A stretch of DNA of 34,214 nt from Candidatus Omnitrophota bacterium (lineage in GTDB: Bacteria; Omnitrophota; Gorgyraeia; Gygaellales; Profunditerraquicolaceae). The position numbers and the translations under genes were made by a program. Location: NCBI GenBank assembly GCA_041648875.1, contig JBAZOE010000001.1, positions 1-34,214 of the forward strand, written 5' to 3'. This document shows, piece after piece, positions 2,663 through 11,559 of the stretch. Positions within the stretch are counted from its first letter, which is position 1; the number at the start of each line of letters is the position of its first letter. The notes beneath the pieces were generated by a model, which made no database searches, was not told the origin of the DNA, and saw only the letters and a list, made by a program, of their open reading frames with translations.

Positions 2663-3313
2663 TTAGAATATAAGATCCAAACCCAATAAAATTAAAAGCA
2701 ACGCGCAGGAAATGCGGAAAATCAACAAGCTTAGATTTGATTTTAGAATTTTTCCCGGCAGCCGGCTGATTATTCCCGATAACCCGGCGATAATCACGAA
2801 ACCCGAAATAAATGTGCCTAAGCCGAACGAAAGGACGCAAATCAGACTTTCAAGCGCGGTCTTGGAAATAATTGTAATTTCAAAAAGCAGCGCCAAAAGC
2901 GGTGCGCACGGGGATATTCCGATTGTAAAACCCAGGATAAACAGGCTGCCTAAAGTTAACGCTTTATTCGCCGAGAGCTTACACCCGCAATAACCCGGAT
3001 CCCTGTTAAACATGATGAAGATCCCCAGGAAAATGATAATTACTCCTCCCAAGGGCTTTAAAAATGAAGTAAAATTGGAGTTTCCGAATTGCTTAAGCAG
3101 GGTTGCCGAAACTCCGGCAATGAATCCTAAAACAAGGTAGGCGAATAACCTGGCGGAAAGAAATATTAATGCTTCTATTAATCCTTGGCCCCATTTAAGT
3201 TTTCTTCCTGCAAGATATGTGATAAAAACAGGCGTGCAGGATAAGAAACACGGCCCTGAAAAACCAAAACTTAAACCAATGCCAAAAAGCTGAAGATAAG
3301 TTAGAAATCCCAT
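2663..3313 (-). CDS. DsbD_2/CcdA-like thiol-disulfide transfer membrane protein (cytochrome c biogenesis transmembrane-region family)
   Basis: 216 aa with about six hydrophobic helices. Cys motifs lie within helices (GPCFLSCTP near the N-terminus, ISPCAPLLALL mid-protein), as in the CcdA/DsbD core. The start overlaps the upstream gene by 13 nt. Confidence 0.6.
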   Translation of the reverse strand: MGFLTYLQLFGIGLSFGFSGPCFLSCTPVFITYLAGRKLKWGQGLIEALIFLSARLFAYLVLGFIAGVSATLLKQFGNSNFTSFLKPLGGVIIIFLGIFIMFNRDPGYCGCKLSANKALTLGSLFILGFTIGISPCAPLLALLFEITIISKTALESLICVLSFGLGTFISGFVIIAGLSGIISRLPGKILKSNLSLLIFRISCALLLILLGLDLIF

Positions 3314-4425
3314 CTGCCGGATATTTTTTTACCGCAGAAAACACATTTTCCGTTTTTAATGTTATTCTCTAAAATCTCATATCCTATTCTTTTTACGGCA
3401 ATTTTTCCGCATTCCGTACAATATGTGCTTTCCGCCGGATGGCCGGGGACATTGCCTATATAAACATATTTTAACCCTGCGTTTTTGGCGATTTTATATG
3501 CTTCTTCGAGTTTTTCAAGAGGAGTAGGGGGAAGATTCATCAATCGAAAAGCCGGCATAAAGCGGCTGAAATGAACCGGCACATCAGCCCCCAGGTTTTC
3601 CTTTATCCACACACACATTTCCTTAATCTTAGCAGTTTCGTCATTTAAACCCGGAATGATCAGGCAGGTTATTTCAAGCCAAACCCCTGAGTTTTTGATT
3701 GTTTTAAGGGTTTCCAAAACCGGCTCCAGCTGCGCCATCTCGCCGATTTTAGCGTAAATCTCACCGGAGAAGCCTTTAAGGTCCACATTAACCGCATCCA
3801 TATATTTAAGCAGCTCCTTTAACGGTTCCTGGTTTATATAGCCGCAGGTATGCATTGTGTTTTTTAACCCTCTGGCGCAAGCCAGTTTTGCGATATCAAG
3901 CATATATTCATAAAATACAGTCGGCTCGGTATATGTATAAGCGATAAAACGGCAATTGTTTTCTATAGTCTGATTAACCGCTTCAAAAGGAAGGAGGTTG
4001 TAACTTTGGGCTTCATCCGGCCTGGACTGGGATATCTGCCAATTTTGACAGAATACGCAACGCATATTGCATCCGGCTACGGCAAGGGAATAGACTGAAG
4101 AACCGGGAGAAACATGAAAAAAAGGTTTCTTTTCAATAGGATCAATATGGATAGCTACCGGGTTAGCGTATCCAAGACTATAAAGCTTGCCTTCCTTGTT
4201 TATACGCACGGTGCAGACACCGCGCTGACCGGGAGCAAGAATACATTTACGCGGACACAAAAGACACTGTAAGGTAGCCTCTTTTATAACCTGCCAATAA
4301 CTGGCGGGGTGTAATAGCGGCTTGGAAGATTCTTTCGCCTGCGCGTCTACAAGAAACACACCCAGGCAAAACAGAACTACCATTATAATTTTATTTTTTT
4401 TAAAATGTGGAAATTTATCGCGCAT
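3301..4425 (-). CDS. AmmeMemoRadiSam-system-type radical SAM enzyme (AmrS / PflA-like activase family) with extra N-terminal signal-anchor
   Basis: Radical SAM motif CNMRCVFCQNWQIS. N-terminal Cys cluster CLLCPRKCILAPGQRGVCTVR and C-terminal CTECG...CVFCG match this family. About 38 extra N-terminal residues contain a hydrophobic helix and an AQA motif. Confidence 0.75.
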   Translation of the reverse strand: MRDKFPHFKKNKIIMVVLFCLGVFLVDAQAKESSKPLLHPASYWQVIKEATLQCLLCPRKCILAPGQRGVCTVRINKEGKLYSLGYANPVAIHIDPIEKKPFFHVSPGSSVYSLAVAGCNMRCVFCQNWQISQSRPDEAQSYNLLPFEAVNQTIENNCRFIAYTYTEPTVFYEYMLDIAKLACARGLKNTMHTCGYINQEPLKELLKYMDAVNVDLKGFSGEIYAKIGEMAQLEPVLETLKTIKNSGVWLEITCLIIPGLNDETAKIKEMCVWIKENLGADVPVHFSRFMPAFRLMNLPPTPLEKLEEAYKIAKNAGLKYVYIGNVPGHPAESTYCTECGKIAVKRIGYEILENNIKNGKCVFCGKKISGRWDF

Positions 4426-6585
4426 TTAACTCGGTTTAATTTTATATATGAAAAAAGGCGTCCCGCTTATTAAAGCTCTTAAATATCCGGCTGCCAATGT
4501 TCTTTTCTTATGCTGCGCAAAAACTATTTTCAATATATGGTTATACTCATCCAGCGCTAAGCGGGATGTTCCCGGGGGAAAAATATGGGAACTGTATTTG
4601 GCTTCTTCATATTGTTGCGCAAATCTCAAGAACAAATTATCCTTTATGGCATATTTTCCATCAGCCAAACTGGCTAAAAACAATGGCGGCATATAAAACC
4701 TATGCTGTATACCAAAAATGGAGACTATTTTGCTAAGGTTCATGTAAAGAGCGATAGTTAAATCTCTAGGGCTGGAATATAAGCTAAGAATATCCCGCTT
4801 AGATTTTTCAGTCAATATATAAAAATAAGAATAAGACAAAAACACGGCTAATAATAAAAAAAGCAGTATTTTTAAAATAAGCTTAAATAACCAATGCTTC
4901 TCATGCACCACCTCTGCTTCCACCGGAAGGCTGCGCATTCCTAAATATTCAGCAAATATCTTTGTCCGGCCAACCCCTGCGGGCCAAACTTTGTTTTTAT
5001 CCATCTTCACTATGTCTGAATCAGCGCATACCCAGCTGACTAAAGAGGTAATATCCCTATGTGAAGAGTCGCCAAAATGCCCTTCCGCTTCCAAACATAA
5101 ATGTTCCCCCTTAGCTATCATCAATTTAGCCGGAGAAACTGCCATAGAAATCAATCTTGCTTCTCTTACGATAACCGGGATGCATTGGTTTTCTATGTTT
5201 TTATATTTGACGCATACTTTTGTATCTCCCGGTGCAATCGCGTTAATTAACCCATTCTTTACATCAGCAAATTTACCATCAATAATCTTCCAGTTGGCCA
5301 ATATAGTTATATCTTCTTCTAAATTATCCTGCCGCAGGCCGAAAGCGGAAAACTGCTTTTGAGCCCCTGCCGGAATATCGCAATAGTCTGGAGATATTCT
5401 TATGTTCTTAAACTTTTTTTCTTCGGTAAATTTACGGGTTAAATCTTTTATATTGACTTTAATATCATCAAACGAATCCTCAAAATAATTTTTTTGTTTT
5501 TCTGCTTTTTCTACCCAGGCCTTAATAACGGGGGAATCCGAAACAGCCACTTTAACGGGTAAGCTGCGTAAATTATCCAACACGCCCTGCAGTTCGGTTA
5601 TCCCGACAAATTTAGCGGCAAAAACATTATCTGACACTCTTTCTAAGATTTCCGTATCTTTAATAACCCAACCTATTCTTTTAGAGACCTCTTCTACCCT
5701 GTTGTCCCCATAAGTAGCAAAAGCATAAAAAGATATACTGCTCTGGTTGGTTACGAAGACATCGGCAGGAACAATAGAAATTTGCTTTAAAGAACGACTA
5801 AGCTGGACAGGGATCTTAGCTACCTCAATATCCTGAGAGATACCCTGTAATCCTTTATGCCTGCAAAATACTTTATACTTTCCAGGGAATCGTAATACGA
5901 CTTTTGAATCTTTAATTTTCAGGGCCTGGCCGTTTTGTTCACTAAACCATTCTGCCTGCCGGGTTATCTCTCTTACCGTATAACGACCTTTAAAAACAAA
6001 TGTCCCAAAAGCCTGAAAATAAACTGTGGTATTTTGATCCACATAAGGCTTATATGGGAAAATATCTATGTTAATTAACCTCTCTTCTGTACCAGGATCT
6101 TCTTCTGCCTCGGCTACAGAGATAAAACTTGCATTGCTATAACAGCCTTTATATTTGGCTATAATTTGATAGTCGCCGGGTTTTTTAGGTACCAAAACTC
6201 CTTGCCCGGATATAGTAAAATTGCCAGGGTTACTTAAAAGCAGCTCAACCTTAGACGTTACATCGGTTATTTCTTGCGGGCCCGCCAACACCTTTAACTC
6301 CAAAGGGAAATCTACATATCCCTTAATGAAACGAGGATAAAGGTATACTTCAAGCGGTTCATCCAAATAAATATATAATTTTCTTAAACCATTATAACAC
6401 CATATATTCCCTTTTATAGATGCGGGTAATCCGTATTTATTAAGCGCTTCTTCCTCCCTCATGCCAAATATAATTTTCCCCTGCGGGATTGTCTTTTCTT
6501 GGTATGTTTGTTCCGCATAAACAAACTTACAGTAAGGAAGGCTGATTAAAAAAATCAATAAAAAGAGTTTCTTTATTTTCATCAA
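4426..6585 (-). CDS. signal-peptide protein with Big_2-like Ig repeats, one TM helix and a C-terminal DUF4129-like domain
   Basis: 719 aa. N-terminal signal peptide MMKIKKLFLLIFLISLPYCKFVYA. Long beta-rich region with Ig-like repeats (e.g. VSWVCADSDIVKMDKNKVWPAGVGRTKIFAEYLG). TM helix LILKILLFLLLAVFLSYSYFYIL. The helical tail (FAQQYEEAKYSSHIFPP...) resembles DUF4129. Confidence 0.55.
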   Translation of the reverse strand: MMKIKKLFLLIFLISLPYCKFVYAEQTYQEKTIPQGKIIFGMREEEALNKYGLPASIKGNIWCYNGLRKLYIYLDEPLEVYLYPRFIKGYVDFPLELKVLAGPQEITDVTSKVELLLSNPGNFTISGQGVLVPKKPGDYQIIAKYKGCYSNASFISVAEAEEDPGTEERLINIDIFPYKPYVDQNTTVYFQAFGTFVFKGRYTVREITRQAEWFSEQNGQALKIKDSKVVLRFPGKYKVFCRHKGLQGISQDIEVAKIPVQLSRSLKQISIVPADVFVTNQSSISFYAFATYGDNRVEEVSKRIGWVIKDTEILERVSDNVFAAKFVGITELQGVLDNLRSLPVKVAVSDSPVIKAWVEKAEKQKNYFEDSFDDIKVNIKDLTRKFTEEKKFKNIRISPDYCDIPAGAQKQFSAFGLRQDNLEEDITILANWKIIDGKFADVKNGLINAIAPGDTKVCVKYKNIENQCIPVIVREARLISMAVSPAKLMIAKGEHLCLEAEGHFGDSSHRDITSLVSWVCADSDIVKMDKNKVWPAGVGRTKIFAEYLGMRSLPVEAEVVHEKHWLFKLILKILLFLLLAVFLSYSYFYILTEKSKRDILSLYSSPRDLTIALYMNLSKIVSIFGIQHRFYMPPLFLASLADGKYAIKDNLFLRFAQQYEEAKYSSHIFPPGTSRLALDEYNHILKIVFAQHKKRTLAAGYLRALISGTPFFIYKIKPS

Positions 6586-6590
6586 TTTGG

Positions 6591-9290
6591 CTATATTCCT
6601 AATTCACTTTTGATAAAGGCAAACTCCCGCTCGGGGATTGTTGCAACTACCGTGACTTTGCATCTCCTGCTTACCAGACCCCCGTACCGACAAGTTATCT
6701 CAGCTTCGCCTATGCCTCTGGCATAAACCAAGCCAAACTGATTGACAGAAGCTATGGAAGAATCTGAAGAAGACCATTCCAGTTCAGGAGAAATTTCTTT
6801 AACAAAATTATCGTAAACTGCTACGCTTTTTAAAGAAATCCTTGATTGTAGAGGTAAAATAACGTAACCGGGCAACAGGTCGATTTTCATCCGCCCTAGC
6901 TGCCTGCTACGGTCGGACATCTCTGAAAATTCATCTGATTCAAATTCTTTTTCAAACTGCTTTGATTCGGATAATTCTTTAAGCGCGCTTGCGTTCTTTA
7001 ATAATTCTTGCTCGGTCTTACTCCCCCTTAGTTTATTTAATCTACTTTCTAATAAAGCTGCTTGTTGCGGCAATCCGCTCTTTAAGACTTCAATCTCTTT
7101 GCGTAAATTACAACTCTCTTTTTCCAGTATAAACATCTTTCTCTCTTCAACTGCCTGTTGTACGAACTTTTTTATTCTTTCGCTGTCTCTGGCTTCGCCT
7201 TTTCTAGCCAATGCATCTATTTCTTCATTAATAACCTCAGACACATCTCCGGCTTGAGATATTGTTTGCGCATCCCCCAGCTTATCCACCAACTTTTTTA
7301 TCCGTTCTTTCTGTTCATCCCCTGAAGATAAGTTCTGCAAAAATTTAGCTGCCTTTTCCTTGTAATCCAAGGGGATATCCTTATTCAGAGCCCTTTTTTG
7401 CCTACCCATATTTGCCAATTCTGAACTTACGGTAAAAAACTCCTCTATTTTTTTAGTTTCTCCTACTAAATTATCCACGGTCTCTTTAGTAATGCTGCCT
7501 TGCTTGTAAAATACCTCTAATGCTTTCTGCATCTTCGCGGAAAGAACAGTTATCTTATCTTTTGTCCGTTCAGAGTCCATGGCTTTTAAGTCTTCTAACA
7601 GGTTTTCACCGGAATCCGCAAGGCCACTCTCCTGAATTTTATTCTTCAAGGCATCTGCCGCTTCTCTGGCTAAGCTTTCTATCTTTGCCTGCAATATATC
7701 TCTTGCTCCCCGGGGGATCTGAAAGTAACTTTCCTGACGCATGCGTTCTGTAAGCTTGGATATTTTTCTCAAAATCTCCCGGGGATCCCCGGATTCCTCA
7801 GCGGCATTAAGCGCTTCCTCAAGTTCAGGCGGCTTATCAATCGATTGCCCGGAATCTTCTAATTCCCTACGCAGTTGGCTGACTTCTTTTAAAGCGATCA
7901 TAACCTTCTTTAATTTAAGTAAATCCTCTGCCTTATCAATAAGTTTCTCGTCTTCTAAAAACGATCCCTGGCTCATCTTTTCAATCAACTTATCCACCTT
8001 GGCAGAATCAGGAACCGTATTTACATCACGGATTTGCTGGGCTAGTTTATTAAAACCTGATTTTCTGTCTTCATCCAAATTATTAATTTCTTTTTGAAAA
8101 GAATCGAGCTTTCTGGAATAAACCTGGTAAGCCTTCCACTCTCTAAGCTGTTTATCAAGCTGTTTTAACTTCTTCCTTGCTTCATCAGAAATCAAATCCT
8201 CATTAACTGCGCTACGCAACTGCTCGCTATTTTTGTTGATTTCCTCCAAAGAATTGCTATATTCTAGTTTATTGGCTGAACTTAATAGAGAAAACCTTTG
8301 CCGTAAACCAATATGGTTATCGTCAATAATCTTGCTTATAGAATCCTTTATCCGAGTTAAATTATTTAATATCTTTTCCCCCATATACGCTTTAATTGAA
8401 TCGCTTAATTCTTTCACTTTCACCGCCTCCTGGGCTAAAGCGGGATTACTAAATATCTCCGCAATATCTCCTCGGGCTTTATCAACTTCAAGCGCAAACG
8501 GTTTTTCTTTAACCAATAAATCCTGGATTGCCGCCAGCACCCGGTACATTTCATCGGTGGAATAAAGTCGGAATGTCAAGCTAGTCAATTCCTTCTGAAT
8601 CTGTTCGCCTGTCAAAGAAACGCCTTTTCCTTTTGCCTGCCCTTCTGTCGAATTTAAACCTTCCTCCTTTAGATACCCCAATATTTCAATTTTTCCCAGA
8701 GGCAAATTAATAAAGAATACCCATGCTGATAGTATCGATAAAACAAGTACGATAATGAAAAAAATATTTATCCCTTGATATTTTTCCCGTGCTTTTTCCG
8801 GATTATCAAAAAGAGCGTGCAGCCTTATCCTGGCCAGTGCCAATAAATTAAAAGTAAACAATGAGGTAAGGAACAGGGAAAAATTATTATATCCCCTGAT
8901 CAACGCGCATAAGCAGAGAAATAATAGAATACTAAAAATCTGCATGGAATTTAAGCAGCCCTGCAGGCATGAACCAAAACTATGGACCACTATTAAAAGC
9001 GACAGGCTTTTGATACAGATAACAATTACCTCTCTATAAAGAAAGGCGGATTTAAATACAAAATAAACTGTCGCTGTCAAAATCAATATGCTAGCCGCCA
9101 AGATCACAAATTTCTTAAAAAGATAAAGCTGGTTGCGGCTGATATAAGCAACACTAGAGCCTAAAATTATGCCACCAACGAAAAAAACACGTAGAGCTGT
9201 TGCTTCTTGGGGAAATAATAGCAATAGCGGCAGAAAAAGCAAAAACGTCAGAAAATACTCTAGATGAAAATAGGGATCTTTGTTTTCCAT
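6591..9290 (-). CDS. polytopic membrane protein with ~600-aa coiled-coil region and C-terminal Big_2-like Ig domain
   Basis: 899 aa. About six TM helices in the first ~200 aa, then a very long K/E/L/Q-rich heptad-like sequence. The C-terminus carries EWSSSDSSIASVNQFGLVYARGIGEAEITCRYGG (Ig-like). No transglutaminase core motif seen. Confidence 0.5.
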   Translation of the reverse strand: MENKDPYFHLEYFLTFLLFLPLLLLFPQEATALRVFFVGGIILGSSVAYISRNQLYLFKKFVILAASILILTATVYFVFKSAFLYREVIVICIKSLSLLIVVHSFGSCLQGCLNSMQIFSILLFLCLCALIRGYNNFSLFLTSLFTFNLLALARIRLHALFDNPEKAREKYQGINIFFIIVLVLSILSAWVFFINLPLGKIEILGYLKEEGLNSTEGQAKGKGVSLTGEQIQKELTSLTFRLYSTDEMYRVLAAIQDLLVKEKPFALEVDKARGDIAEIFSNPALAQEAVKVKELSDSIKAYMGEKILNNLTRIKDSISKIIDDNHIGLRQRFSLLSSANKLEYSNSLEEINKNSEQLRSAVNEDLISDEARKKLKQLDKQLREWKAYQVYSRKLDSFQKEINNLDEDRKSGFNKLAQQIRDVNTVPDSAKVDKLIEKMSQGSFLEDEKLIDKAEDLLKLKKVMIALKEVSQLRRELEDSGQSIDKPPELEEALNAAEESGDPREILRKISKLTERMRQESYFQIPRGARDILQAKIESLAREAADALKNKIQESGLADSGENLLEDLKAMDSERTKDKITVLSAKMQKALEVFYKQGSITKETVDNLVGETKKIEEFFTVSSELANMGRQKRALNKDIPLDYKEKAAKFLQNLSSGDEQKERIKKLVDKLGDAQTISQAGDVSEVINEEIDALARKGEARDSERIKKFVQQAVEERKMFILEKESCNLRKEIEVLKSGLPQQAALLESRLNKLRGSKTEQELLKNASALKELSESKQFEKEFESDEFSEMSDRSRQLGRMKIDLLPGYVILPLQSRISLKSVAVYDNFVKEISPELEWSSSDSSIASVNQFGLVYARGIGEAEITCRYGGLVSRRCKVTVVATIPEREFAFIKSELGI

Positions 9291-9298
9291 AACCTAGA

Positions 9299-10525
9299 CT
9301 AAAATTTCTCCTCTAAATTATCTTTACAGGCGATATAAATAGGATTAAGGTTTATATTCTCAGATATGCCAATAGCATAATCTTTAACCTCTTTATGCCC
9401 GGAATGAGTTTTAATAAATGTCGAAGATTTAAGAATTATGGGCACCAGAGATACGTTTCTGACCCCTAAAGAAAGCATCGCGGGTAAAAATGACTTATTT
9501 TTATCCGTCATTACAACAATCAAGCTTGAATCTTCTAAAATATTGCGCTGAAAGTTAGCAAAGAGCTCAAATAATGTCACCCTGCTCTCTGCTTGCGCGA
9601 CAGTCAAAAACTTAAGGATTTCCTCAAGATGGCCCTCCCCTTTATTAAAAGGAATATGCACCACCTCTCCTGCATGAGAAATAATCTCAATGGATACGCC
9701 TAAATTAATAAGGTATTTGGCAACTGAAGCTACAATTCTTATGGTGTATTCCGCGACGGATTCTTTGCCTTCCCCAAGATTATCTTCTTTTTCCAGATTA
9801 AACATTATGGTTGCTCTAAAGAAATCTTGGCGTTGGAATTCTTTTACAATCAGCTGATTTTTACGTGCAGAAACCATCCAATGTATTTTCTTTAACGGAT
9901 CCCCTCTTTTATATTCCCGCACCCCAAAAAATTCGTCATCATCGCCGCTCACGCGCGATGTTTCGACACCAAGCCATGGAGAGATGCCTTTGTTTAAAGC
10001 TGGAAACTTGCGGATATGAAAAATCCGGGGATAAACATATGCTTCCGAATACAGCGGATACGTTTTTTTAAAATAAAACAAACCCAAGGGATCAAAAAAA
10101 TAAACAACCAATGGGCCTATTTCATATCTGCCTCTCCGGGGGCAAAAACAACGGTAGGTAAACTTAACAGCTGACTTAGGCATTAAAAAGCTCAGCATAA
10201 TAAACTTCTGCTTTTCTTGCGCATACGCGCAACTTAAATGATCTTTCAATATGGCATCGGAAACAGGAAGAAAACCTCTATTCTCTATTTCCAGAATAAC
10301 CTCCAAAGCATCATCCTCTTCTATTTTCAGTGTTATTTTACGTTCCAGATGCAACCTCTGGAAAAAATAGATTAAAACCAGCCATAGAGAACTTATTGTC
10401 AAAATAGACAGGAGGATCCAGAAGAAAAAATAGAAGATAATAAAGGGGGTCTTCAGGCTCATAAAAAGGCTGAAACCCAGAAGAACCAAGAATAGAATCC
10501 ACTTTCCCAGGAATTTCTTATACAT
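9299..10525 (-). CDS. DUF58 domain-containing protein (MoxR-associated, vWA-like)
   Basis: 408 aa with two N-terminal TM helices and the DUF58 hallmark GDDDEFFGVREYKRGDPLKKIHW. Lies 8 nt downstream of the MoxR gene. Confidence 0.85.
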   Translation of the reverse strand: MYKKFLGKWILFLVLLGFSLFMSLKTPFIIFYFFFWILLSILTISSLWLVLIYFFQRLHLERKITLKIEEDDALEVILEIENRGFLPVSDAILKDHLSCAYAQEKQKFIMLSFLMPKSAVKFTYRCFCPRRGRYEIGPLVVYFFDPLGLFYFKKTYPLYSEAYVYPRIFHIRKFPALNKGISPWLGVETSRVSGDDDEFFGVREYKRGDPLKKIHWMVSARKNQLIVKEFQRQDFFRATIMFNLEKEDNLGEGKESVAEYTIRIVASVAKYLINLGVSIEIISHAGEVVHIPFNKGEGHLEEILKFLTVAQAESRVTLFELFANFQRNILEDSSLIVVMTDKNKSFLPAMLSLGVRNVSLVPIILKSSTFIKTHSGHKEVKDYAIGISENINLNPIYIACKDNLEEKF

Positions 10526-10532
10526 GCTTAAT

Positions 10533-11459
10533 TCAAGAAATTGGGATTTTTTTTAATATATTGTCGATGACCAGATCGGGGGTCATTCCGGAAATCGTTG
10601 CCTTCGGATGTAATATTATCCTGTGTTTCAAAACATGGGGCAAAAGCTTAATAATATCATCGGGTATAACATAATCCCTGCCCTCAATGAATGCCCAGGC
10701 ACAGCTAGCTTTCATGATGGCGATTGATGCGCGCGGACTGGCGCCATGTTTTATTACATCGGAGTTACGGGTTGAGGATACCAATTTAACGATATACTCC
10801 AACACCTCGGGAGAAACTTGAACTCTTTTTACCTTTTCCTGCAGCTTCAAAACATCCTCAAGAGCCATAACCGGCATAACGCTTTCCACAGGATGCTTAA
10901 TCTTTTGTTCAGAGATAACCCTTATCTCTTCAGCCAACGATGGATACCCTATGTTGATCTTCATCAGGAACCGGTCTATCTGCGCTTCAGGCAAAACATA
11001 CGTCCCTTGGTATTCAATGGGGTTTTGCGTAGCAATAGTCATAAAAGGAGCCGGCAATGGATATGTCAAGCCCTCAACGGTAACCTTATATTCCTGCATG
11101 CATTCCAGGAGCGCAGATTGCGTGCGCGGGGTAGTCCTGTTAATTTCATCCACCAGCAGGATATGCGCGAACACCGGCCCCTTTTTAAAATCGAATTCTC
11201 CGGTCTTAGGGCTATAAACAAACCCACCGGTAATATCCGTAGGCAACAGATCCGGAGTAGCCTGAATCCTTTTAAAATCTCCGTTTATAGATTTGGCTAA
11301 CGTCAAAGCCAGCATTGTCTTTCCCACGCCGGGGATATCTTCAATCAAAATGTGGCCGTTAGTCAATAACCCTATAACCAGCATTTTTACTGTTTCAGTT
11401 TTACCCACAATAACTTTCTCAATGTTGGCAACTAATTTATAGATATCCTCATTAGCCAT
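10533..11459 (-). CDS. MoxR-family AAA+ ATPase
   Basis: 308 aa. Walker A is DIPGVGKT and Walker B is LLVDEINR, with MoxR/AAA_3-like length and layout. AGGAGGA lies upstream of the ATG. Confidence 0.9.
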   Translation of the reverse strand: MANEDIYKLVANIEKVIVGKTETVKMLVIGLLTNGHILIEDIPGVGKTMLALTLAKSINGDFKRIQATPDLLPTDITGGFVYSPKTGEFDFKKGPVFAHILLVDEINRTTPRTQSALLECMQEYKVTVEGLTYPLPAPFMTIATQNPIEYQGTYVLPEAQIDRFLMKINIGYPSLAEEIRVISEQKIKHPVESVMPVMALEDVLKLQEKVKRVQVSPEVLEYIVKLVSSTRNSDVIKHGASPRASIAIMKASCAWAFIEGRDYVIPDDIIKLLPHVLKHRIILHPKATISGMTPDLVIDNILKKIPIS

Positions 11460-11530
11460 TATCGTCCTCCTGATTTAACCGCTTTATGCGGACAAACAAA
11501 TGGAGCCCCTAAGATTAAGGTATCATTTGT

Positions 11531-11559
11531 ATTATATAACAGTTTTTACGCAACTCCAA
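11531..11559 (-). promoter_or_regulatory. sigma70-type promoter candidate for the MoxR operon
   Basis: On the minus strand: TTGGAG (11559-11554), exact 17-nt spacer, consensus TATAAT (11536-11531), about 72 nt upstream of the MoxR ATG. It sits in the only sizeable gap (158 nt) of this region. Confidence 0.5.

Follow-up and report, generated by a model that had tools for sequence, protein, structure and literature searches.

A split, enzyme-less variant of the MoxR-DUF58-TgpA module in a Candidatus Omnitrophota genome

What do a MoxR-type ATPase and its DUF58 partner act on when no transglutaminase follows them? The question is raised by a 34,214-nucleotide (nt) stretch, here called the window, which is contig C1 (JBAZOE010000001.1) of a 1.22-Mb, 74%-complete Candidatus Omnitrophota genome. 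On its minus strand lie four tightly packed genes, which encode in order MoxR, DUF58 and two large proteins of 899 and 719 amino acids (aa), the latter two from open reading frames (ORFs) at 6591-9290 and 4426-6585. In Pseudomonas aeruginosa, PA2875 (MoxR), PA2874 (DUF58) and PA2873 (tgpA) are co-transcribed, annotation puts the transglutaminase domain in the periplasm, and tgpA is essential in PAO1 (PMC3507681). An earlier note on the window had proposed that an ancestral TgpA was split here, its membrane N-terminus and its DUF4129 tail being kept on separate proteins and its enzyme core swapped for helical and immunoglobulin (Ig)-like modules. Our analysis supports this proposal, as the core is absent and fused relatives carry both ends, and we hold with high confidence that the module is a split, enzyme-less TgpA unit in two halves. 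Its parts are as follows.

10533 to 11459, minus strand: MoxR-type AAA+ ATPase of 308 aa (Pfam AAA_3, E = 1.4e-60; AAA_lid_2, E = 7.9e-23)
9299 to 10525, minus strand: membrane-anchored, vWA-like DUF58 protein of 408 aa (PF01882, E = 3e-14) with two N-terminal transmembrane (TM) helices
8706 to 9290, minus strand: seven-TM domain of the 899-aa protein, residues 1-195, homologous to the membrane half of TgpA_N (DUF3488) (Pfam, hhalign)
6897 to 8609, minus strand: all-alpha, charged and conserved region of the 899-aa protein, residues 228-798, predicted to be periplasmic (AlphaFold, predicted local distance difference test (pLDDT) mostly 70-90)
6645 to 6890, minus strand: Big_2 Ig-like domain of the 899-aa protein, residues 801-882 (Big_2 in 20 of 21 family members)
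6514 to 6585, minus strand: Sec-type signal peptide of the 719-aa protein, residues 1-24 (KIKK, hydrophobic core, VYA-EQ)
4906 to 6303, minus strand: five Ig-like (Big_2-type) domains of the 719-aa protein, residues 95-560, with a helical linker at 364-384 (AlphaFold, Foldseek, PDB profile)
4816 to 4893, minus strand: single TM helix of the 719-aa protein, residues about 565-590 (AlphaFold and TM prediction)
4429 to 4803, minus strand: helical tail of the 719-aa protein, residues 595-719, a divergent DUF4129 predicted to be cytoplasmic, with its core at about 618-681 (alignment, hhalign)

That the enzyme is missing was examined by several routes. Pfam gave no match to the transglutaminase core (PF01841) in 43 family members, and PDB profiles found no transglutaminase in either large protein, the positive control matching 6g49 at 2.6e-13. 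Foldseek returned neither a transglutaminase nor a vWA fold for either protein, and no remnant of the TgpA periplasmic region was found in their middle parts by hhalign (0.4%, versus 99.9% for the positive control). A transglutaminase core was not found anywhere in the 74%-complete genome, and the second half of TgpA_N is absent from the 899-aa protein. By Pfam, the window module also contains no BatA/BatB vWA, TPR or BatD proteins. The statement of the earlier note that neither a transglutaminase core nor vWA or Bat proteins are present here is thus upheld, as a cryptic transglutaminase or vWA domain was looked for in both large proteins and none was found. Being without a transglutaminase core and made of two polypeptides, the module is to be seen as a derivative of TgpA operons and not as a TgpA.

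What is left of TgpA lies at the two ends of the unit. Using a set of 24 diverse true TgpAs from several phyla, hhalign relates the N-domain of the clade to the TgpA N-domain at 92.8% (E = 3.8e-7, 186 columns) and the tail of the clade to the TgpA tail (DUF4129) at 90.3% (E = 1.5e-6, 81 columns), with reversed, column-shuffled and cross controls all at or below 1.5%. Among relatives, TgpA_N exceeds its Pfam cutoff in genomes G037 (37.7 bits) and G378 (30.6 bits), always at profile positions 2-186, which matches the first ~180 residues of P. aeruginosa TgpA that hold TM helices (PMC3507681). The tail of one fused relative (L075) scores 33.5 bits on Pfam DUF4129 (PF13559, cutoff 24.8), and the window tail is 37% identical to it (E = 1e-18). 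When 1.84 billion representatives were searched with a profile built on just the soluble tail, 405 proteins matched at E ≤ 0.001; among the top 150 of these matches, the 38 most distant carry by Pfam DUF4129 (18/38), TgpA_N (9/38) and Big_2 (13/38), and Transglut_core is not among the 25 families listed for them. At the profile level, the N-terminus of the 899-aa protein is thus homologous to the membrane half of TgpA_N, and the tail of the 719-aa protein is a divergent DUF4129. Both similarities had been proposed in the earlier note, and both are supported by profile-profile comparison, the naming of DUF4129, which Pfam misses in the window protein, having been a fortunate guess that proved right.

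Relatives of the module connect these two ends to each other. A survey with the 719-aa family yielded 38 loci, almost all from Omnitrophota metagenome-assembled genomes, and the order MoxR, DUF58, 899-like, 719-like is kept in all of the ~20 loci with enough upstream sequence, down to 23-35% identity. Nine further loci, and family f7, have just one protein after DUF58, which begins with the seven TM helices and, past a middle part of reduced length and one late TM helix, ends in the same tail. Family profiles show each fused relative that was mapped in detail to be the 899-aa N-part joined cleanly to the 719-aa C-part, at a junction that varies by lineage (e.g. 476/360, 559/572, 395/566). There are 69 fused forms among the top 150 library representatives, of which all 69 match the N-domain profile and none the transglutaminase core; their middle region varies widely, with parts deleted, in proteins of 451-1222 aa. 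Since a single protein immediately downstream of MoxR-DUF58 unites the two halves in relatives, the 899-aa and 719-aa proteins are parts of one unit. The fused enzyme-less TgpA-like proteins (e.g. L072, 856 aa; L075, 816 aa; L078, 716 aa; G037, 539 aa) belong to the same MoxR-DUF58 clade (support 92-96) and share the seven-TM domain and the EEAKYSxH tail, some also having the last two Ig domains. They differ from the window pair in being one polypeptide. Missing from them are, on the 899-aa side, the Big_2 domain and the latter half of the helical region and, on the 719-aa side, everything up to the third Ig domain, namely the signal peptide, the N-terminal domain and Ig domains 1 to 3.

The same relatives speak to a simpler account, by which the large proteins would be ordinary envelope or surface proteins, such as adhesins or S-layer-like proteins, placed downstream of MoxR-DUF58 with no tie to TgpA. 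Their best Foldseek matches are indeed to adhesins and S-layer proteins (LigA, SbsC, EA1, Sap), and the window proteins have no Pfam DUF4129 match and a TgpA_N match below threshold. This account is nevertheless largely refuted by the fused relatives with both ends in one chain after MoxR-DUF58, and it sits poorly with the hhalign ties of both ends to TgpA and with a gene order maintained to such low identity. Furthermore, the C-terminal TM helix would tether the Ig array to the inner membrane of a diderm cell, arguing against surface display. We find an unrelated pair of surface proteins hardly credible.

The history of the split unit can be followed in a tree of MoxR plus DUF58 rooted on the Bat pair. 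All transglutaminase-less modules fall in one clade (support 96; 92/84 in a second run) apart from the TgpA modules of Candidatus Kaelpia, so that the enzyme was probably lost once in this lineage. In the main subclade, split and fused forms stand in a polytomy, and the approximately unbiased test gave p = 0.060 for one split clade and p = 0.056 for one fused clade, the groups having been named after seeing the tree. Because the split-specific segments are homologous in all split members while the fused junctions differ, we would favour one fission followed by several in-frame re-fusions. A second type of split occurs at L040:6571-9139 (G378) and L041:4933-7946 (G285), where a seven-TM protein of 594 or 664 aa is followed by a shorter protein of 263 or 315 aa that has no signal peptide, a TM helix near its middle, and the tail. 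In this shorter protein, the N-terminal 117-156 residues precede the TM helix with no signal peptide for membrane crossing. Homologues of the 899-aa protein in L046, L047, L048, L055 and L056 seem broken into two ORFs near residue 700, an artefact of runs of masked N in the stored records. Some contigs with the module carry the labels Margulisiibacteriota, Patescibacteria or Planctomycetales, namely L078 (DATJPP010000150.1), L080 (DATJPV010000035.1), L045-L047, L052, L056, L070 and L071; the four of them included in the tree (L045, L047, L052, L080) nest among Omnitrophota copies, and mis-binning or mislabelling seems more likely than transfer.

If the ends of the unit come from TgpA, what has taken the place of its enzyme? 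AlphaFold models the 899-aa protein (mean pLDDT 71) with seven TM helices (residues 6-195; seven hydrophobic segments at 8-194) followed by a disordered linker, a series of helices, a beta-sandwich and a short terminal helix. The count of Lys and Arg in the loops of the seven-TM domain (8 to 3) favours an N-in, C-out orientation. Foldseek and PDB profiles match this protein in the beta-sandwich only, to the Big_2 domains of LigA (root-mean-square deviation (rmsd) 1.2-1.4 Å by Foldseek), intimin and a teneurin-like protein (PDB profile, 1.3e-8). The all-alpha region spans ~570 aa in ~20 helices of 10-42 residues and consists to 37% of D/E/K/R. Foldseek found no PDB fold for it, the importin and dynein-tail matches being disregarded at probabilities below 0.4. 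The earlier note had described this protein as a polytopic N-terminus, a coiled coil and a Big_2-like domain. The first and last of these stand, and the all-alpha nature of the middle is supported; a coiled coil is not specifically shown, as the heptad signal is modest and non-specific (z of 2.7 at period 3.5 and of 2.1-2.4 at 3.6 and 4.0).

An enzymatic role might also have been retained, in which case either the all-alpha region or the 719-aa protein's small N-terminal domain would be a new catalytic or ligand-processing domain in place of the transglutaminase. The helical region has many invariant columns among 21 sequences, down to 38% identity, and its match to no known fold leaves room for any function. 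However, its invariant residues are mostly Leu, Lys, Glu and Gln, as would be expected for helix packing, and no conserved Cys/His/Asp constellation in a papain-like fold was found. The middle of the fused relatives, with its deletions and its range of sizes, behaves unlike a catalytic core. We therefore judge a replacement enzyme improbable.

In the AlphaFold model of the 719-aa protein (mean pLDDT 79), a small N-terminal domain lies between the signal peptide and the Ig array, and the helical tail is modelled at residues 606-707. The signal peptide, Ig-like repeats, TM helix and tail read from the sequence by the earlier note are all recovered by AlphaFold and Foldseek. The Foldseek matches of the array are Ig-like chains, in LigA/LigB (TM-score 0.77 for LigA), S-layer proteins and NUP210, and the PDB profile of LigA matches at 2.8e-21; across both large proteins, the Ig domains superpose on LigA with an rmsd of 1.2-2.8 Å. 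Big_2 (PF02368) is present in 22 of 22 members of the 719-aa family (best 5.9e-14), the two window proteins themselves scoring 20.5 and 20.8 bits, just short of the cutoff of 22.8. NCBIfam added nothing useful for either large protein. In the alignment of the tail, [FY]EEAKYSxH is invariant, and PPL..A and YN accompany it. With regard to the start of the protein, the ORF opens TTG-ATG and most homologues have 718 aa, for which reason the true start is probably the ATG at 6582.

Given the signal peptide and the basic residues that follow the TM helix, the Ig array is predicted to lie outside the cytoplasmic membrane and the tail inside. In fused forms, homologous Ig domains follow the seven-TM domain and precede the late TM helix, which would make the middle of the unit extracytoplasmic. 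The genome encodes BamA and LptD, indicating a diderm cell, and the Ig and helical domains are thus most likely periplasmic. The predicted topology agrees with that annotated for P. aeruginosa TgpA (PMC3507681).

How much of the cytoplasmic machinery has been kept? The window MoxR scores far over the Pfam cutoffs (AAA_3 203 bits, cutoff 27; AAA_lid_2 80 bits), its translation shows a Walker A (GVGKT) and a Walker B (LLVDE) motif, and it is 48% identical to the MoxR of a canonical TgpA operon in Candidatus Kaelpia imicola (G031). DUF58 scores 53 bits on PF01882 (cutoff 23.4), covering only profile positions 2-142 of 216, has TM segments at residues 6-24 and 34-52, and matches the DUF58 of the same TgpA operon over its full length (E = 1e-22). 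In an alignment of 32 DUF58 proteins, the Bat copy has an intact DxSxS motif of the metal-ion-dependent adhesion site (MIDAS), which reads DMSPS, and the copy of the true TgpA operon an almost intact one, DSSSN; Asp alone is left in the basal enzyme-less subclade, and the window subclade reads NLEKE, a few members having G or T. By this alignment, the motif appears to have been lost stepwise in the enzyme-less clade. In this small sample, loss of the metal site in DUF58 accompanies loss of the transglutaminase.

The nearest known system is the P. aeruginosa operon PA2875-PA2874-PA2873 (structure of the TgpA periplasmic part, PDB 6g49). The two share the order MoxR, DUF58, multi-TM protein with TgpA_N and, after the periplasmic part, a late TM helix and a DUF4129 tail, the homology of the ends being visible at the profile level. 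They differ in that the window module has no transglutaminase core, no second TgpA_N half and no MIDAS in DUF58, that its periplasmic part is all-alpha and Ig-like, that TgpA is split in two, and that the module is accessory whereas tgpA is essential. Candidatus Kaelpia, of the same class (Candidatus Kaelpia imicola at L009, and G191 at L081), resembles the window in its MoxR and its TM-anchored DUF58. In contrast, its third gene encodes a single TgpA of 1312 aa with TgpA_N, Transglut_core (4.4e-19), a ~650-aa acidic insert and DUF4129, and its DUF58 keeps DSSSN at the MIDAS position. In the Kaelpia TgpAs (L009:4926-8864, L081:4896-8855; ~1310 aa), this insert of ~650 residues, which separates the transglutaminase core from the late TM helix, is extremely rich in E/D and of low complexity.

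Two further systems open or combine with a MoxR-DUF58 pair. The Bat aerotolerance operon (MoxR-DUF58-BatA-BatB-BatC-BatD) begins with such a pair, whose partners differ, being vWA (BatA/B), TPR and BatD proteins. The window genome has a canonical Bat operon of its own on contig C53 (L005:741-8452), headed by a second MoxR-DUF58 pair, with genes for MoxR, DUF58, a TPR-PPIC-type rotamase, a 316-aa protein with no Pfam match, BatA, BatB, TPR and BatD before it runs off the contig end. The DUF58 of this operon is soluble and MIDAS-bearing, scores 266 bits and matches VWA_2 as well. The TPR-rotamase insert is foreign to the textbook Bat operon. Because this operon is separate, a degraded Bat operon is ruled out for the window module, which is a distinct system. 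Together with P. aeruginosa (PMC3507681) and the Kaelpia imicola operon, it also substantiates the premise of the earlier note that MoxR-DUF58 pairs adjoin TgpA or Bat proteins. The PFNA cluster of Bifidobacterium (pkb2-fn3-aaa_atp-duf58-tgm; PMC8430577) likewise joins MoxR-DUF58 to a membrane transglutaminase-like protein and a separate Ig-like (FN3) protein. It differs in that the transglutaminase is kept, the FN3 protein is encoded upstream and described as secreted, and a Ser/Thr kinase is included. In the literature searched, no description of enzyme-less TgpA relatives was found, and DUF4129 is mentioned in two papers only.

At the locus itself, the ORF list confirms the four genes at the coordinates given above and the gaps of 7, 8 and 5 nt between them that the earlier note had read, the last gap becoming 8 nt if the 719-aa protein starts at the ATG at 6582. 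Two signals precede MoxR.

11531 to 11559, minus strand: promoter-like site, TTGGAG, 17-nt spacer and a perfect TATAAT (read directly)
11465 to 11470, minus strand: ribosome-binding site GGAGGA, 5 nt before the MoxR ATG

The promoter-like site is present as the earlier note had reported, with a weak -35 (3/6 match), for which reason the promoter scanner left it unlisted, and a perfect -10. Promoter-like sites are not enriched in the region (24 observed versus 26.5 expected from shuffles), and the main support for this one is its position in the sole sizeable intergenic gap, 158 nt after feoB. At the other end, the ATG (4425) of a radical-SAM gene (AmmeMemoRadiSam-like, window 2663-4425) abuts the stop codon of the 719-aa gene with no gap, so that the transcription unit may run past the four genes, and the radical-SAM gene in turn overlaps at its end with a DsbD_2 gene. 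Co-transcription of this pair with the module is likely and a functional link doubtful. We rejected the radical-SAM, DsbD_2 and SpeE-like genes as parts of the module because no relatives but the closest (L044-L048) have them behind it, and they are absent after the 74%-identical copy L043 and after L049.

How widespread is the module? By the tail profile, 34 of 401 sampled Omnitrophota genomes carry it, every one belonging to the window's class, and it occurs in 8 of 17 other genomes of the genus, which are ~89-96% complete. Patchiness of this kind could also be that of a MoxR-vWA conflict or defence system, with Ig and helical proteins that would serve to sense phage or host or to act against them. 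The variable periplasmic domains fit such a role, as would a host-dependent life of Omnitrophota. However, PADLOC gives no significant match for the four proteins, the only match being a non-significant one of MoxR to IetA (E = 0.004, with no passing stretch), and no nuclease, protease or toxin domain was found in the module proteins by Pfam and NCBIfam. The neighbours are housekeeping genes, such as feoB and the radical-SAM gene, and the loci examined show one copy per genome and no signs of mobile elements. A defence function thus strikes us as very improbable.

Against these rivals stands the explanation that the module derives from a MoxR-DUF58-TgpA operon that lost its enzyme, came to be encoded as two polypeptides, and now acts on a non-enzymatic, helical and Ig-like periplasmic structure. 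As a whole, we consider this explanation reasonably probable, and several observations weigh against it. The window N-terminus reaches only 18-21 bits on Pfam TgpA_N (PF11992, positions 2-182; cutoff 30), and Pfam itself detects no DUF4129 in the 719-aa protein or its 21 close relatives. Weak TgpA_N matches are common in the phylum, occurring in 97 of 401 genomes at E ≤ 0.01. A profile of 27 N-domains does not match the two in-phylum TgpAs by hmmsearch and gives 0.5% by hhalign; similarly, the tail profile yields E = 0.27 against them, and BLASTP of true Omnitrophota TgpA against the 899-aa and 719-aa proteins found no match. The links of N-domain and tail to TgpA are thus significant only with the 24 diverse TgpAs. 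The topology of both large proteins is a predicted one. Since the module is patchy even within the genus, it is accessory and dispensable, unlike tgpA in P. aeruginosa. The loss of the MIDAS motif means that the DUF58 adaptor may work differently here. Finally, to our knowledge the function of the MoxR-DUF58-TgpA operon is unexplained, even though it is widespread in bacteria and archaea.

What, then, might the module do? Four parts would make up a conserved chassis: MoxR, DUF58 with its membrane anchor, the seven-TM domain, and the tail formed by TM helix and DUF4129. Just as in a canonical TgpA operon, cytoplasmic MoxR and its vWA-like DUF58 adaptor would act on the cytoplasmic tail and loops, and in place of an enzyme they may assemble, hold or remodel a helical and Ig-like periplasmic structure. 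Judged from sequence and predicted structure, such a scaffold driven from the cytoplasm is offered tentatively, as something possible rather than probable. The view of the earlier note, that the large proteins may be structural or adhesive clients of the MoxR chaperone, is a similarly tentative one. By the size of Ig domains, five of them are about long enough to span a periplasm. Taken further, the chassis could be a general inside-out actuator that passes cytoplasmic ATP hydrolysis across the membrane to any periplasmic payload; here the payload would be a periplasm-spanning Ig and helical strut that shapes or braces the envelope of very small cells, the adaptor link would be free of the MIDAS metal site, and the transglutaminase would be one interchangeable payload among others. 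In this full form, we regard the idea as speculative and rather unlikely.

In conclusion, the split, enzyme-less TgpA module is a new variant of a known, unexplained operon. Work on MoxR-DUF58-TgpA has so far centred on the transglutaminase, yet here the enzyme has been dropped while MoxR, DUF58, the seven-TM domain and the DUF4129 tail have stayed linked and conserved, which points to these four as the functional core. The natural fused and split forms are ready-made constructs for mapping contacts between the parts, the invariant [FY]EEAKYSxH offers a concrete site to mutate in an otherwise undescribed DUF4129, and the correlated loss of the MIDAS in DUF58 is a testable clue to the binding partner of the adaptor. 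For the family as a whole, these findings suggest that the transglutaminase is an exchangeable payload, and not the core, of the MoxR-DUF58-TgpA machine.

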